Assembly: GCA_001781035.1 (NCBI GenBank) | Contig: MFKK01000008.1 | Span: forward strand, 1-46,372 | Reading direction: 5' to 3' | DNA: 46,372 nt | Origin: Candidatus Jorgensenbacteria bacterium RIFCSPLOWO2_01_FULL_45_25b | Lineage (GTDB): Bacteria; Patescibacteriota; Minisyncoccia; UBA6257; GWB1-50-10 | Shown: piece after piece, positions 19,305 to 40,361 of the stretch | Position numbering within the stretch: position 1 is the stretch's first letter | Layout of the letters: every line of letters starts with the position of its first letter | Notes under the pieces: generated by a model | The model's input: only the letters and a program-made list of their open reading frames with translations | Databases searched by the model: none | What the model was told of the DNA's origin: nothing | Made by a program: the position numbers and the translations under genes

Positions 19305-20297
19305 ATGATTAATCCAAAGGTAAAACTAAACAAAAAGATTTTTGAGGCGGACATTTCTCAGTCTCCGATTCGCGACGGGTATGGGGACGGTCTGCTTTTT
19401 CTTGGAAAGGAGAATCCAAATGTTGTCGCGCTTTGTGCCGATTTGAAAGAATCCACGCGGGTTGAGGCGTTCGCGAAGGCATATCCGAATCGGTTTTTTG
19501 AGTGCGGAGTTTCCGAGCAGGCGATGGTGACGGTTGCCGCGGGCTTGGGAATTTCGGGGAAGATTCCCTTTATCTCGTCATACGCTACGTTTTCACCTGG
19601 TAGAAATTGGGAACAGATACGGACGACTGTGGCTTATAACGATTCAAACGTGAAGATTGCGGGACATCACGCGGGTATCTCAGTTGGACCCGACGGAGCG
19701 ACTCATCAGGCGTTGGAAGATATCGCGATTATGCGCGCGCTTCCGAACATGAGAGTTATTGTTCCGTGCGACGCGATTGAGGCGAGGAAGGCGACCATAC
19801 AGGTGGCGCATCTTTGGGGGCCTTGTTACTTGCGGTTTCAGCGGGAAAAGACTCCTCTTTTTACAACAGACGAGACGCCATTTGTTTCGGGTAGAGCGGA
19901 GGTGTTTTGGCAGTCGCGTGGAGCGATCGCGACAATTATCGCGTGTGGCGCGATGGTTTATATCGCTCTTCGCGCCGCGGAGGAGCTCAAAAAGGAAAAG
20001 ATAGGAGTTGTCGTTTTGAACAATCACACTATAAAGCCGATTGACGAGAAGACGATTATAAAATTTGCGAAGGCGACGGGAGCCGTTGTTACGGTTGAGG
20101 AGCATCAAGTTGCGGGAGGGCTTGGCGGGGCGGTCGCGGAACTTCTTGTCGCGAAACACCCCGTTCCTATGGAATTTGTCGGGATGGAGGATTCGTTTGG
20201 AGAGTCGGGGAAACCAAACGAGCTTTTGAAGAAGTATGGAATGGACGTTTTGGATATTGTGAAGGCGGTGAAAAAGACCTTGAAACGTCGAGAATAA
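19305..20297 (+). CDS. Transketolase, C-terminal subunit
   Basis: LCADL, GVSEQ, GPDGATHQ, VTVEEH, FGESG. Confidence 0.93.
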   Translation: MINPKVKLNKKIFEADISQSPIRDGYGDGLLFLGKENPNVVALCADLKESTRVEAFAKAYPNRFFECGVSEQAMVTVAAGLGISGKIPFISSYATFSPGRNWEQIRTTVAYNDSNVKIAGHHAGISVGPDGATHQALEDIAIMRALPNMRVIVPCDAIEARKATIQVAHLWGPCYLRFQREKTPLFTTDETPFVSGRAEVFWQSRGAIATIIACGAMVYIALRAAEELKKEKIGVVVLNNHTIKPIDEKTIIKFAKATGAVVTVEEHQVAGGLGGAVAELLVAKHPVPMEFVGMEDSFGESGKPNELLKKYGMDVLDIVKAVKKTLKRRE

Positions 20298-20326
20298 CTT
20301 ACGAGTTACGATCTCGTAAGTTATTC
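20292..20326. repeat. REP-like palindrome at the RAYT 3' end
   Basis: GAATAACTTACGAG-ttacgat-CTCGTAAGTTATTC, a 14-bp stem containing both convergent stop codons. Confidence 0.85.
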
Positions 20327-21016
20327 GAGAAGGGCGCTCTTTTCCAATGACGACGCGCCTCTTTCTTTTAACCAATCAAATACTTTTTTCTCATACTCCG
20401 AGCCCTTTCCAATTATTTCTTCAAGGAAGTTTGTTTCTATGACTAATGGAAAATTTTTCTTTCCCGCGTAATCTAGATAACTACTCCACCGATATGAGTT
20501 TAAAAACTCAACAGTTTTTTTGTGATTTTGAATTTCCTTATTTCTCCAGTTTGGTTCTATCATATCGAGAGGATTGAGGTGAATATAATAAGGGAGATGA
20601 ATTAGATGCGAGTCGTCTTTTACATGAACGGCCTTGAACCGTCCCTGAAAGAGAGTTCCAGACCGTTCGTTTTTTAGATTAAAATACATGGCGTATCCTA
20701 TCCCGATTTTTTTCATAAATTCTGATACGCCATTGTCTTCAATTTGCTCAAGAAGGAGATGAAAATGGTTTGGCATGAGACAGAAGGCGTGAATTTTTAC
20801 CAGAGGTTTTCGTTCGCGGTTATCTTCCTTAAAATTATGAGATCGTAACTCGTAAGATTTGTAGTAGATGTTTTCGGCGAGGGCGATGTCGTTGAATTCA
20901 AACAGATTGTGAACCATTCGGAAATGATCTCCTTTATCAAGAAAGATTTTTCTCTTTTCGACACCTCGGTTATAGACGTGATACAGGTTGTTGTTGGCGA
21001 ATTTTGGCCTTTTCAT
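20321..21016 (-). mobile_element. REP-associated tyrosine transposase (RAYT, Y1 HUH)
   Basis: YHVYNRG, CLMPNHFHLL (HUH), FQGRFK, YIHLNP (catalytic Tyr), YRWSSY; flanked by REP palindromes. Confidence 0.92.
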
Positions 21017-21033
21017 AGTAGGTTTATTATATC

Positions 21034-21085
21034 ATCTTATGAGATCGTAACTCGTAAAACTTTACGAGTTACGATCTCATAAGAT
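21034..21085. repeat. Inverted REP doublet (REPIN-like) upstream of RAYT
   Basis: ATCTTATGAGATCGTAACTCGTAAA-ac-TTTACGAGTTACGATCTCATAAGAT, 25-bp perfect stem. Confidence 0.9.
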
Positions 21086-21122
21086 TTTGCGAATGCGGGA
21101 ATTTGGGGTATAATGCTTATAT

Positions 21123-31507: not shown

Positions 31508-31522
31508 CAAAAAGGGCTTAAA

Positions 31523-31564
31523 CTTACGAGATCGTAACTCGTTAACGAGTTACGATCTCGTAAG
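31523..31564. repeat. Dispersed REP doublet of the RAYT family, perfect 42-bp palindrome
   Basis: CTTACGAGATCGTAACTCGTT|AACGAGTTACGATCTCGTAAG. Confidence 0.9.
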
Positions 31565-31626
31565 AGTGTTTTGCTTACTCCGTCATTGCTTTTATTATTC
31601 CCTCTGATTCGTTATAATCAGAGCAT

Positions 31627-38102: not shown

Positions 38103-38638
38103 CGGGGGCATCAGGGTTTACCCCGTTAGAGAGCGTTGTTGCTCACAATGGGAACAAAAGTCATGCAAGAGAGCGCGGGGCTTTGTCCTCTCTAACGGGG
38201 TTTACGCTTATAGAGGTTTGCATTACGGTCGGGCTTGTTGCTCTTCTTTCGGTTTCTTTGTTTTTTATTGTGAGTCCCGCAAAAAGATTCGCGGACGCGC
38301 GCAATCAGAAACGTTTATCGGATGTGAATGCCGTATTGAATGCCGTTAGTCAGAATATCGGAGATTATAAGGGTACGTTTTTTTGTCCTTCAGGACCTAT
38401 TCCGATCGCAACCTCTACGCGGATGGCTTCCGGGGCGGGGAGTTATAATATTTTTCCCTGTATTTATCCCGCGTATATCCAGCAGATTCCTTTTGACCCT
38501 CAAGTAATTGGAGCCCACTTTACGAGTATTTCCGACTACGACCTCGGGTATTTCATTGTTTTGAATACCGCGAATAATCGGGTTACTGTTTCCGCCCCAT
38601 TCGCGGAGGACGGGGCGAATATATTCGCGACTCGATAA
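38042..38638 (+). CDS. Type IV pilin-like protein with repeat-expanded leader
   Basis: G|FTLIEVCITV...ARNQKRLSD, IPFDP; leader includes the 80-bp element. Confidence 0.85.
   Translation: MRNTHHFHLKKFVDSDCFVVSGASGFTPLESVVAHNGNKSHARERGALSSLTGFTLIEVCITVGLVALLSVSLFFIVSPAKRFADARNQKRLSDVNAVLNAVSQNIGDYKGTFFCPSGPIPIATSTRMASGAGSYNIFPCIYPAYIQQIPFDPQVIGAHFTSISDYDLGYFIVLNTANNRVTVSAPFAEDGANIFATR
38121..38200. mobile_element. Third copy of the 80-bp MITE-like element
   Basis: Two substitutions relative to copies 1 and 2; flanked by TTTA on both sides. Confidence 0.8.
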
Positions 38639-38669
38639 ACATTCTTTTTTTGTCTACGTTGATTTGTTT

Positions 38670-38711
38670 GCGTGCCTCAAACTTTACCGTACGGTAAAGT
38701 TTGAGGCACGC
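38670..38711. repeat. Perfect 42-bp palindrome, left of the PaaX/Cas2-like gene
   Basis: GCGTGCCTCAAACTTTACCGT|ACGGTAAAGTTTGAGGCACGC. Confidence 0.92.
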
Positions 38712-38772
38712 TACAGAATGGTATAAACTAAATTAGTACAAACTAAATTACTAGGAACATAGAATAATTTAT

Positions 38773-39291
38773 ATGGGAAAAACATCCGTAGACGCAAAAC
38801 GTCATATGCGTGCGCTTGGCGAACTTTTTCGTGAAAGCAGAACCGTGAGCGATGAGGTTGTTCGAGCGTTTTTTGATGCGTATGAACATCGAAAGTATCT
38901 GAAGCAGAGCTTACGACGAATGATGTCGCAAGGTATTGTTCGTCGCAATGCTTCTTCTTATGTTCTTACTCGATTTGGTGTACGTTTTTTTCAGAAGCAG
39001 AAAGCTCAAGAATCTTTTTCGCCTGATCTGTGGGATGGGAAGTGGCGTATTATTAGTTTTGATGTTCCTGAGAAATATTGTGATCGCAGATATCGGCTTC
39101 GCGCGCTTCTCAAAGAATTTAATTTTTTTCCGCTTCAGAAAAGTGTATGGGTTTGTCCCGCGCATCTTTCTGAAAAATTGTGGAAACTGATTGTGGATGA
39201 GCGTCTTCATGCATATTGTAAGGTTATGCTTGTTCAGATTATTGAAGGAGATAAGAATTTGAGAAAGTATTTTAAGCTTTCACAGAAGTAA
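38773..39291 (+). CDS. PaaX-like wHTH plus Cas2/VapD-like ferredoxin-fold protein
   Basis: LRRMMSQG...YVLTRFG wing; WDGKWRIISFDVPE, R..LR..L..F, LQKSVWVCP. Confidence 0.82.
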   Translation: MGKTSVDAKRHMRALGELFRESRTVSDEVVRAFFDAYEHRKYLKQSLRRMMSQGIVRRNASSYVLTRFGVRFFQKQKAQESFSPDLWDGKWRIISFDVPEKYCDRRYRLRALLKEFNFFPLQKSVWVCPAHLSEKLWKLIVDERLHAYCKVMLVQIIEGDKNLRKYFKLSQK

Positions 39292-39311
39292 TTTCTTTTG
39301 TCGCGTGTTGA

Positions 39312-39355
39312 TAAGTGCCTCAAACTTTACCGTACGGTAAAGTTTGAGGCACTTA
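39312..39355. repeat. Perfect 44-bp palindrome, right of the PaaX/Cas2-like gene
   Basis: TAAGTGCCTCAAACTTTACCGT|ACGGTAAAGTTTGAGGCACTTA; 38-bp core identical to the left copy. Confidence 0.92.
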
Positions 39356-39391
39356 AGGAGTTTTGGAAAGCTTGTGATGTTGTGTATTTGT

Positions 39392-39590
39392 TGCTTGTAT
39401 TTTTGAATCTTGCTTGTTTTTGGATTCTGTTTGTATTTTTGGATTCTGCTTGTTTTTGAATCTTGCTTGTTTTTGAATCTTGCTTGTTTTTGAATCTTGC
39501 TTGTTTTTGGATTCTGCTTGTTTTTGGGCGCTGCTTCTTTTTGTTTTTGATTGTTACTTGTTTTTTTGATGCCGCTTGTTTTTGGATGTT
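39392..39590. repeat. 17-bp tandem repeat array, decaying rightwards
   Basis: TGCTTGTTTTTGAATCT and TGCTTGTTTTTGGATTC units, about 8 good copies to ~39527, then degenerate ones. Confidence 0.85.
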
Positions 39591-39611
39591 TTTTAGTTTT
39601 TAATGGTTTGT

Positions 39612-40361
39612 ATGGCTAACGAAAGTGCGATGCGTATTAAAAAAGTTATATTGGAGGTTCGTGCCGGCACGGGTGGAGATGAGGCAGGGCTTTTTGCTGG
39701 GGATTTGGTTCAAATGTATCGCAGGTATGCGGAAAAGCGTGGATGGAAATTTTTGGTTCTTGATGCGAGCGAGAATGCGAGCGGGGGGTATAAGACACTT
39801 GTGGGGGAGATGAGCGGTGAGGGCGTGTATGATGATTTGAAAAATGAATCCGGCGTACATCGCGTTCAGCGAGTCCCCTCTACGGAGCGGCAGGGACGCA
39901 TTCATACTTCCACCGCCTCGGTTGCTGTTTTGCCCTATGTAGAGCCGACCAAAGTTCAATTGAACGAGGGTGATTTGGAAGTTACATTTTCTCGCGCGGG
40001 AGGCCCTGGTGGGCAGAACGTGAACAAGGTGGAAACGGCTGTGAGGATTTTGCACAAGCCGACAGGCATAGTTGTCGGGTCGCGGGTGGAGCGTAGCCAG
40101 CACGCGAATCGTGAATTGGCGATGAATATTTTGCGGGCAAAACTTTTTGAATTGCAGAGAGAGCAGTCGGTTGGGTCCATTGACCAAATCAGGCGGGAAC
40201 AGATTGGGTCGGCGGATCGTTCGGAGAAAATACGAACTTACAATTTCCCGCGGGACAGGATTACCGACCATCGCATCGGCAAGAAGTGGGGAAATATAGA
40301 GAAGATTATGGACGGGGATTTTGGGAAGATCGCGAGGGAGTTTCAAGAAGGGATAAAGTAA
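39612..40361 (+). CDS. prfA: Peptide chain release factor 1 lacking N-terminal domain 1
   Basis: [26 protein letters not shown] (PxT), [16 protein letters not shown]. Confidence 0.9.

Follow-up and report, generated by a model that had tools for sequence, protein, structure and literature searches.

A PaaX-like gene bracketed by two identical palindromes in a Jorgensenbacteria genome, apparently one instance of a large family of genes with their own flanking sites

The stretch of DNA analysed here, which we call the window, comprises positions 1 to 46,372 of contig MFKK01000008.1 (assembly GCA_001781035.1) from Candidatus Jorgensenbacteria bacterium RIFCSPLOWO2_01_FULL_45_25b, an ultra-small bacterium of the Patescibacteria. 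It contains a PaaX-like gene of 172 amino acids (38773-39291, + strand) that stands between two long palindromes, both perfect and loop-less; we refer to the gene with its two palindromes as the cassette. The upstream palindrome, our proposed operator O1, occupies 38670-38711 and consists of two 21-nt arms (38670-38690 and 38691-38711). The downstream palindrome, proposed operator O2, occupies 39312-39355, has two 22-nt arms (39312-39333 and 39334-39355) and begins 20 nt past the stop codon. Both a repeat finder and direct reading of the sequence show that a 38-nt string is 100% identical in the two (38672-38709 and 39315-39352). This core has the outer motif CCTCA/TGAGG and the centre CGTACG, and beyond it the symmetry of each copy runs on into different bases, GC/GC upstream and TAA/TTA downstream. 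A sequence-only reading of the window had described loop-less palindromes with an identical 38-bp core, symmetric flanks that differ between the copies, and between them a gene encoding a winged helix-turn-helix joined to a Cas2/VapD-like domain with the motif ISFDVPE. The repeat coordinates, the arm extents and, for the gene, its open reading frame, Pfam match and fold model all agree with that description.

With 3 mismatches tolerated at most, the window holds two copies of the core, against no match in any of 100 shuffles, and a search of the whole 803,513-bp genome returned the same two places only. The core that the sequence-only reading had left uncounted beyond the window is therefore present in two copies, both at this locus, with five related, non-identical palindromes elsewhere in the genome; the latter we call solo palindromes. 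As single-stranded DNA the upstream palindrome has a predicted folding energy of -24 kcal/mol (z -9.7).

The upstream palindrome ends 7 nt before an extended -10-like sequence, TGGTATAAA (38719-38727, + strand), which we read by eye as the proposed promoter of the gene, and its right arm overlies the -35 region of that promoter. Between this operator and the start codon lies a 15-bp tandem duplication (38721-38750, + strand; two units 93% alike according to the repeat finder), which makes the spacer longer than in homologues. A second -10-like hexamer, TAGAAT (38760-38765, + strand, also read by eye), stands 7 nt before the ATG, and in close homologues the -10 lies in a leaderless position that matches this TAGAAT. 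A consensus promoter scan of 38500-39700, which demands a match to the -35, listed no promoter on the + strand. Neither the sequence nor the promoter scan revealed a T-tail or a -10 beside the downstream palindrome, and a terminator scan of the window found none at either palindrome.

The protein consists of a predicted N-terminal winged helix (approximately residues 1-80), with the recognition helix KYLKQSLRRM, and a PaaX_M or Cas2-fold domain (approximately residues 86-161) with the motifs FDVPE and LQKSVW. Specifically, residues 86-161 match the Pfam family PaaX_M (PF20803) with 63.9 bits (cut-off 24) and E 1.5e-17. The winged helix has a sub-threshold match to HTH_45 (E 0.055), and the Pfam model for the N-terminal part of PaaX gave no match to the protein at E up to 1. 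No match to PaaX_C (PF08223) was found in the protein, which ends at residue 172. Short length is common to the 22 aligned close homologues (155-211 amino acids), and PF08223 appears only in weak matches of 271-274 amino acids. The Pfam search of the window protein also found no Y1_Tnp/HUH domain and no other known transposase or recombinase domain.

An AlphaFold model from 23 sequences (predicted local distance difference test score, pLDDT, 83) has three helices and a two-strand wing, followed by a beta-alpha-beta-beta-alpha-beta domain in which the predicted strands are residues 91-95, 119-122, 125-129 and 150-154 and the predicted helices 104-115 and 130-142. The top Foldseek matches of this model are E. 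coli PaaX (8a39; E 5e-5, 137 columns aligned) and Rv0674 (3kfw; E 1e-4), followed by Cas2 chains such as 5zyf_C (probability 0.97). The structure 8a39 is that of the protein from E. coli W, and PaaX is the phenylacetyl-CoA-responsive repressor of the paa operons. The window protein is further predicted to form a homodimer, with a score of 0.46 against 0.00 for the best of three controls, 100% of contacts agreeing among three runs and a partner pLDDT of at least 73; the mark applied is reached by 20 of 30 solved homodimers and by 1 of 23 monomers. Because PaaX and Cas2 dimers have already been solved, this pass may reflect likeness to them. The predicted interface (residues 90, 93, 95-97, 121-125 and 150-158, F96 and D97 among them) falls entirely within the Cas2-fold domain.

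The likeness to Cas2 and VapD is thus one of predicted architecture: a ferredoxin-like fold, an aspartate that ends strand 1 and a dimer formed through the last strand. The aspartate, D97, is invariant in all 23 aligned close homologues, and some homologues also match the Pfam CRISPR_Cas2 model. Unlike Cas2, the window protein stays below the cut-off of the NCBIfam cas2 model TIGR01573 (22.6 bits against 24.5), is fused to a predicted winged helix, and has neither cas1 nor a CRISPR array to accompany it. The sequence-only reading had noted the lack of both, and it extends to the genome (97.6% complete), in which a search for Cas1 (PF01867) gave no match and a crude scan found no CRISPR-like array. 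FDVPE and LQKSVW are also equally conserved in PaaX-type proteins of 270 amino acids that carry PaaX_C and are annotated as regulators, and the 'Cas2-type Asp' is therefore a feature of the family and no mark of a nuclease.

The genome has three PaaX_M genes, the window gene and paralogues on contigs C10 and C37 (82.7 and 57.8 bits against PaaX_M). By tblastn these two are at most 37% identical to the window protein over partial alignments, and the same search found no near-identical second copy of the gene in the genome. Each paralogue is flanked by a different, private family of palindromes. The C10 paralogue is bracketed by its own pair of 38-42-bp palindromes, which differ from each other at one position, mirrored in the two arms; at the C37 paralogue the palindrome that follows the stop codon is perfect and the upstream copy, with TGGTATAAT, is imperfect. 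The C37 gene and its downstream palindrome (1522-2496) lie approximately 230 bp upstream of tRNA-Ser(GGA).

For a wider comparison, we used 80 homologue loci from Patescibacteria genomes together with loci from relatives of this genome; 104 open reading frames matched the family profile, duplicates being counted once. A palindrome was scored when its arms were at least 15 nt long and differed by no more than 1 mismatch, when its loop did not exceed 2, and when it lay no more than 260 bp upstream or 250 bp downstream of the gene. Among close homologues, a palindrome was found upstream in 17 of 32, downstream in 20 of 33, on at least one side in 24 of 32 and on both sides in 12 of 32. The corresponding numbers for either side and both sides were 24 and 12 of 55 for distant homologues, and 8 and 1 of 126 for control genes in the same loci. 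That homologues carry cognate palindromes of their own, as the sequence-only reading had supposed they might, is therefore borne out for the close homologues (24/32 against 8/126 in controls). The sites differ in sequence from gene to gene and share a design, in which the outer motif is conserved, the middle varies but stays symmetrical, and the 6 bp at the centre are themselves a palindrome, CATATG, CGATCG or CTATAG among others and CGTACG at the window locus. At three loci from different genomes (L005, L017 and L030) the identical 8 bases GTGGGGAT follow directly after the downstream palindrome, and may be a further conserved element.

The two copies of a locus differ in their surroundings. 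In the close subfamily the upstream region reads palindrome, 5-8 nt, TGnTATAAT, 6-8 nt, ATG, which in sequence terms is an extended -10 promoter with a predicted leaderless message and the palindrome over the -35 region. When a -10-like hexamer is counted if it starts 3-16 nt past the end of the palindrome, upstream palindromes have one on the side nearer the gene in 18 of 34 cases, with the TG extension in 10, and on the far side in 5 of 34. The downstream palindromes have such a hexamer on the following side in 6 of 45 cases and on the other side in 5 of 45. They lie approximately 0-90 nt past the stop codon whatever comes next: a gene on the same strand (18 cases), a convergent gene (24) or none (3). 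With 24 of 45 next genes convergent and a -10-like hexamer in 6 of 45, we rejected, as a general rule, the notion that the downstream palindrome is an operator of the next gene.

The placement of the downstream copies just after stop codons, together with several solo copies at the 3' ends of genes, could also suggest that the palindromes act mainly at the level of RNA or as generic structural elements (terminators, stabilisers of transcript ends or insulators), bearing no relation to the specificity of a protein that acts elsewhere. A perfect palindrome would indeed give the same hairpin in transcripts of either direction. We consider this explanation very improbable. Of 45 downstream palindromes, 3 have a T-tail behind them, and in the close subfamily none of 20 does; the mean G+C of the palindromes is 36%; with the terminator scan empty at both palindromes of the window, we rejected the reading as intrinsic terminators. 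The upstream copy in the window precedes the -10 and so lies outside the gene's own transcript. Nor would a generic element be expected to be private to each paralogue, alike on both flanks and co-varying with a helix of the protein.

This last association appears when the recognition helices are compared with the outer motifs. Where the helix reads KYLKQSLxRL, the half-site carries TGAGG or TGAAG at its outer end; where it reads otherwise, in the paralogues and in distant relatives, the outer motif differs too, KRT-type helices being accompanied by TGTGATA, for example. Across the sequences compared, the recognition helix and the outer motif thus vary together. A second association concerns the centre of the site. 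Of 54 proteins, 19 carry E directly after FDxP, and in the sites of 17 of these the base at position 2 from the centre is not T; the other 35 proteins have a different residue, and T occupies that position in the sites of 25 of them. Among 23 close homologues E is present in the window protein alone (E100), and this protein is the exception in a subfamily that combines V or G with CATATG, its own site having CGTACG instead.

The half-sites of the window, CCTCA-N22-TGAGG, lie inside the 38-bp core. A review (PMC9493321) gives the E. coli PaaX site as TGATTC-N27-GAATCA and describes autorepression at Px through steric hindrance. A further palindrome family in the genome (C13 36851, C13 19372, C37 56200 and C37 52532) has the same outer motif, GTGATACA, as the C10 sites, with each half-site 5 bp nearer the centre, one helical turn in total, and no PaaX-like gene adjoins these copies. 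Other perfect loop-less palindromes of 34-40 bp (C19 5616, C20 16634, C27 18737, C11 13105 and C15 20409) follow the same design, with centres CGATCG, CGTACG and CTTAAG, and have no PaaX_M gene of theirs in the assembly; these could be orphans whose gene has been lost or was not assembled, or else sites of another protein.

From the sequences and predictions above, we think it probable that the window protein is a PaaX-type dimer without a ligand domain, which binds the private palindromes flanking its gene and controls its own promoter. The short protein would bind as a homodimer to the long palindromes that bracket the gene. Its two winged helices would read the outer CCTCA/TGAGG motifs, 22 bp apart, and the Cas2-fold dimer would lie over the middle of the site, probably contacting the CGTACG centre. 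Occupancy of the upstream site, placed as it is over the -35 and close to TGGTATAAA, would control transcription of the gene, with repression as the likely sign if the analogy with PaaX at Px holds. The downstream palindrome would be a second binding site of the same protein; it may bridge to the upstream site and loop the DNA around the gene, or alternatively it may block polymerases passing between the cassette and prfA, the release-factor gene that follows. The five solo palindromes would be further binding sites or relics. The sequence-only reading had offered 'a regulator with looped operators' as one of two possibilities. Its first half is the better supported, by the PaaX-like sequence and predicted fold, the coupling to the -10 and the co-variation of the helix; the looping we infer.

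In several respects the window system resembles that of PaaX. The protein has a predicted N-terminal winged helix followed by a PaaX_M (Cas2-like) dimerisation domain, a site overlaps its own promoter (at the window, a predicted site), and widely spaced inverted half-sites extend over approximately 38-39 bp, as the PaaX site does in the review cited above. Unlike PaaX, the window protein has 172 rather than approximately 305 residues and no PaaX_C, so that there is no known ligand pocket; around its gene lie pilin-like genes, a release-factor gene and a gene resembling lytic transglycosylases, with no paa genes nearby. Moreover, the whole 38-44 bp is a perfect palindrome, not the half-sites alone, the half-site spacing is approximately 5-6 bp shorter, a second identical site stands directly after the stop codon, and each paralogue in this genome has its private site. 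Controller (C) proteins of restriction-modification systems, which like some other autoregulators have long symmetric operators, are small dimeric helix-turn-helix proteins that bind a site of approximately 35 bp at their own promoter. The window protein differs from these in its fold, in having no restriction or modification genes adjacent to it and in its proposed second operator after the gene.

Several observations weigh against a dimeric self-regulator as the full account. To begin with, 8 of the 32 close homologues have no palindrome at the threshold used. The position of the downstream copy follows the stop codon and not the next gene, and a pure repressor model does not account for the role of this copy. 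The association between residue 100 and the base at position 2 is largely one clade split, and we treat it as a lead; in the mutual information between protein columns and site positions, the split between close and distant subfamilies dominates, with residue 100 among the top pairs and not singled out. The symmetry of the arms is a further difficulty. When the upstream and downstream copies of one locus are compared (24 pairs), we count 34 mirrored changes, 11 one-arm changes and 4 double changes without pairing, a ratio that is inflated in favour of mirrored changes because no palindrome with more than one one-arm change passes the search threshold. The family of the window palindrome (family A) is less affected by such bias, for here a half-site search gives 7 genomic sites, all perfectly symmetrical within 16 nt of the centre: all 10 differences from the window core within +/-16 are mirrored, and the 7 one-arm differences all fall at positions 17-19. 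There is no reason why a dimer that merely tolerates variants should produce matched variants in the two arms.

The surroundings of the solo palindromes weigh in the same direction. The five in this genome, on C7, C18, C21 and C34 (twice), are intergenic, one overlapping the stop codon of a 334-amino-acid open reading frame, which, judged from its sequence, may be MiaA-like. Their neighbours are unrelated: a sigma-70 region-4 protein, RNase HII, a beta-lactamase-like protein, tRNA-Leu and hypotheticals. In two relatives the cognate palindrome of a prfA-linked homologue is present 7 and 3 times, that is, the two flanking copies plus 5 and 1 solo ones, and the mismatched variants of these palindromes are mostly mirrored. 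Of the six solo copies in the two relatives, 2-3 lie between convergent genes, and no neighbour gene is common to the solo sites of this genome and those six. A conserved regulon was rejected on these grounds, the neighbours not being shared with relatives and their Pfam names being unrelated. The solo copies look more like scattered repeats than like a conserved regulon, which is the main point in favour of the rival explanations.

Since a tolerant dimer leaves the mirrored variants unexplained, an extra process or a structural role for the hairpin is needed: either one arm is regularly copied onto the other, or there is selection for the hairpin or cruciform form. Template switching at quasi-palindromes is a known, protein-independent route for copying one arm onto the other. 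We suggest that this is how the arms may be kept symmetrical, with selection for a hairpin or cruciform as the alternative. The symmetric extensions in which the two window copies differ are one more mirrored example. From these flanks the sequence-only reading had derived a hairpin-copying step; this fits the mirrored arm changes and is reasonable as a mutational process, and a dedicated protein is unnecessary for it.

The window itself contains a system with which the cassette can be compared. A Y1_Tnp gene of 231 amino acids (20321-21016, - strand; E 1.4e-7), IS200-like and of the type of the REP-associated tyrosine transposases (RAYT; REP, repetitive extragenic palindromic), is flanked by REP-like hairpins at 20292-20326 and 21031-21088. 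The likeness of layout that the sequence-only reading had drawn to this cassette at 20.3-21.1 kb is apparent, and the REP-like hairpins are unlike the 38-bp core in sequence, so that the palindrome is distinct from the repeat of this RAYT. Hairpins related to the REP-like ones also occur at 31520-31567 in the window and on C13 (77128) and C34 (18999).

Given this shared layout, one can imagine a selfish or domesticated system of the RAYT/REP kind, in which the PaaX-like protein recognises its palindrome when this is folded into a hairpin or cruciform, nicks it or helps to copy it by means of the Cas2-type Asp, and seeds the solo copies. As in RAYT/REP systems, a single-copy gene stands between its own hairpin-forming repeats, with further copies scattered in intergenic DNA (5 here, 5 and 1 in the two relatives), some of them between convergent genes and some beside other hairpin repeats. 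The arms co-vary with pairing kept, the hairpins are predicted to be very stable as single strands, and the invariant D97 lies at the predicted dimer interface, as in Cas2. Set against this are the absence of an HUH/Y1 or other known transposase or recombinase domain from the unrelated window protein, the equal conservation of FDVPE/QKSVW in the 270-residue regulators with PaaX_C, and the tiny number of solo copies (1-5), far below the usual size of REP populations. The palindromes of the window type are also loop-less and AT-rich; the fixed spacing between the upstream copy and the -10 suits an operator and not a substrate of transposition, and the mirrored changes could arise by template switching with no protein involved. 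We therefore regard such a system as quite unlikely, and the window protein is not a member of either the Cas2 family or the RAYTs, whose defining features it fails to show.

A small dispersed hairpin repeat with a core of 22-25 bp is found in at least 8 places (for example C7 6234-6294, C21 511-571 and C34 66084-66107), in three cases 25-60 bp from one of the five solo palindromes. Intergenic regions of this genome seem to collect several repeat families.

We now turn to the position of the cassette. Directly downstream of it, a T-rich 17-bp tandem array (39392-39543; approximately 7-9 units, 85% matches) fills the gap between the downstream palindrome and prfA. The release factor (39603-40361; 252 amino acids) matches PCRF over 100-194 of 194 and the whole RF-1 domain, and has no N-terminal part. 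Frames of approximately 245-320 amino acids were found in all 25 relatives of the same family that were searched, so the short form is a trait of the lineage and not damage done by the cassette.

The prfA locus was read in 24 same-family relatives, and in two of them the gene directly upstream of prfA is a homologue. In two other relatives, one of them with the most similar prfA (85%), a pilin gene stands approximately 45-55 bp from prfA, and both the cassette and the 17-bp array are absent; these are the empty sites between pilin and prfA that the sequence-only reading had envisaged, and neither of them bears a solo palindrome as a footprint. Five loci, with named genomes included, have the order homologue, prfA, transglycosylase and three different upstream neighbours. 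In an approximately unbiased (AU) test the five prfA-linked genes, a group set from synteny before the tree was inspected, are rejected as one clade (p 0.0025, log-likelihood difference 63.6). The position directly upstream of the release-factor gene has been taken by at least two lineages of the family in different genomes, and it may be a preferred or functionally linked position. Five trxB-linked genes, in contrast, form one well-supported clade (Shimodaira-Hasegawa-like approximate likelihood ratio test 99), which indicates that their context was inherited vertically, and seven homologue genes have a small membrane-protein neighbour in common. These branchings come from a quick tree of approximately 170 fast-evolving columns in which most forks are unsupported. 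We conclude that the cassette seldom moves to another place and is seldom replaced.

The same observations bear on the idea of a mobile cassette that recombines at its flanking palindromes, in the manner of integron cassettes or of elements that exploit Xer, with the solo copies as landing sites or footprints and the protein as an accessory or targeting factor. Two identical palindromes are direct and inverted repeats at once, two relatives with pilin beside prfA lack both cassette and array, three kinds of upstream neighbour accompany the five prfA-linked loci that the AU test rejects as one clade, and the family is patchy and multi-copy among the relatives, with 0-5 matches per genome and a match in 25 of 41 genomes. 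We nevertheless find this idea decidedly unlikely. The empty sites hold no solo footprint, the cassette is not accompanied by a recombinase, its copies in the genome all differ from one another (with at most 37% identity for the paralogues), the trxB-linked lineage has kept its context, and the tree that argues for movement is the weakly resolved one just described. Contigs from four public DNA runs show neither a joint across the cassette nor an inversion of it, but they break at both palindromes and so provide no real test. Nor does the cassette resemble insertion sequences or transposons, which are expected in several near-identical copies per genome: it has no such copies, and the two paralogues have different ends.

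A 'selfish cassette with a Cas2-like nuclease' had been the other possibility of the sequence-only reading. The scattered solo copies, the empty sites and the prfA-linked copies that do not form one clade speak for it; the single gene copy, the context kept in at least one lineage and an aspartate that is no mark of a nuclease speak against it. In its most far-reaching form the thought would be of a new class of self-bracketed elements made of a Cas2-fold protein and its palindromes. The dimer would recognise the hairpin or cruciform, nick it or promote its copying through the Asp and so keep the arms identical, seed the solo copies and allow loss, gain or exchange of the cassette at places such as the region upstream of prfA. 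Such elements would be a functional analogue of RAYTs and their REPINs (REP doublets forming hairpins), and possibly relatives of the ancestor of Cas2 that CRISPR adaptation recruited. We think this unlikely, and continue to favour the short PaaX-type dimer that would bind its own flanking palindromes.

Whichever way the palindromes are used, genes of this kind are numerous. In a search space of 1.84 billion representative proteins, the profile of the close subfamily matches 2,100 representative clusters when E is capped at 1e-10 and 5,324 when the cap is 1e-3, and most of the best 150 clusters consist of proteins of approximately 165-210 amino acids. A literature search, made outside subscription journals and supplementary files, found no description of a self-bracketed PaaX-like module. 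The window cassette is apparently one instance of a large, undescribed family.

Recognisable regulators are, to our knowledge, very scarce in Patescibacteria, and next to nothing is known of gene control in this group. If the palindromes are acted on as hairpins, the family would have a bearing on the origin of Cas2 and on the spread of small palindromic repeats. If instead the short proteins are self-contained pairs of repressor and operator, they would make up a major part of the regulatory repertoire of the phylum, would provide a natural set of orthogonal protein/site pairs, and would be a case of a Cas2-fold domain taking part in the reading of DNA.

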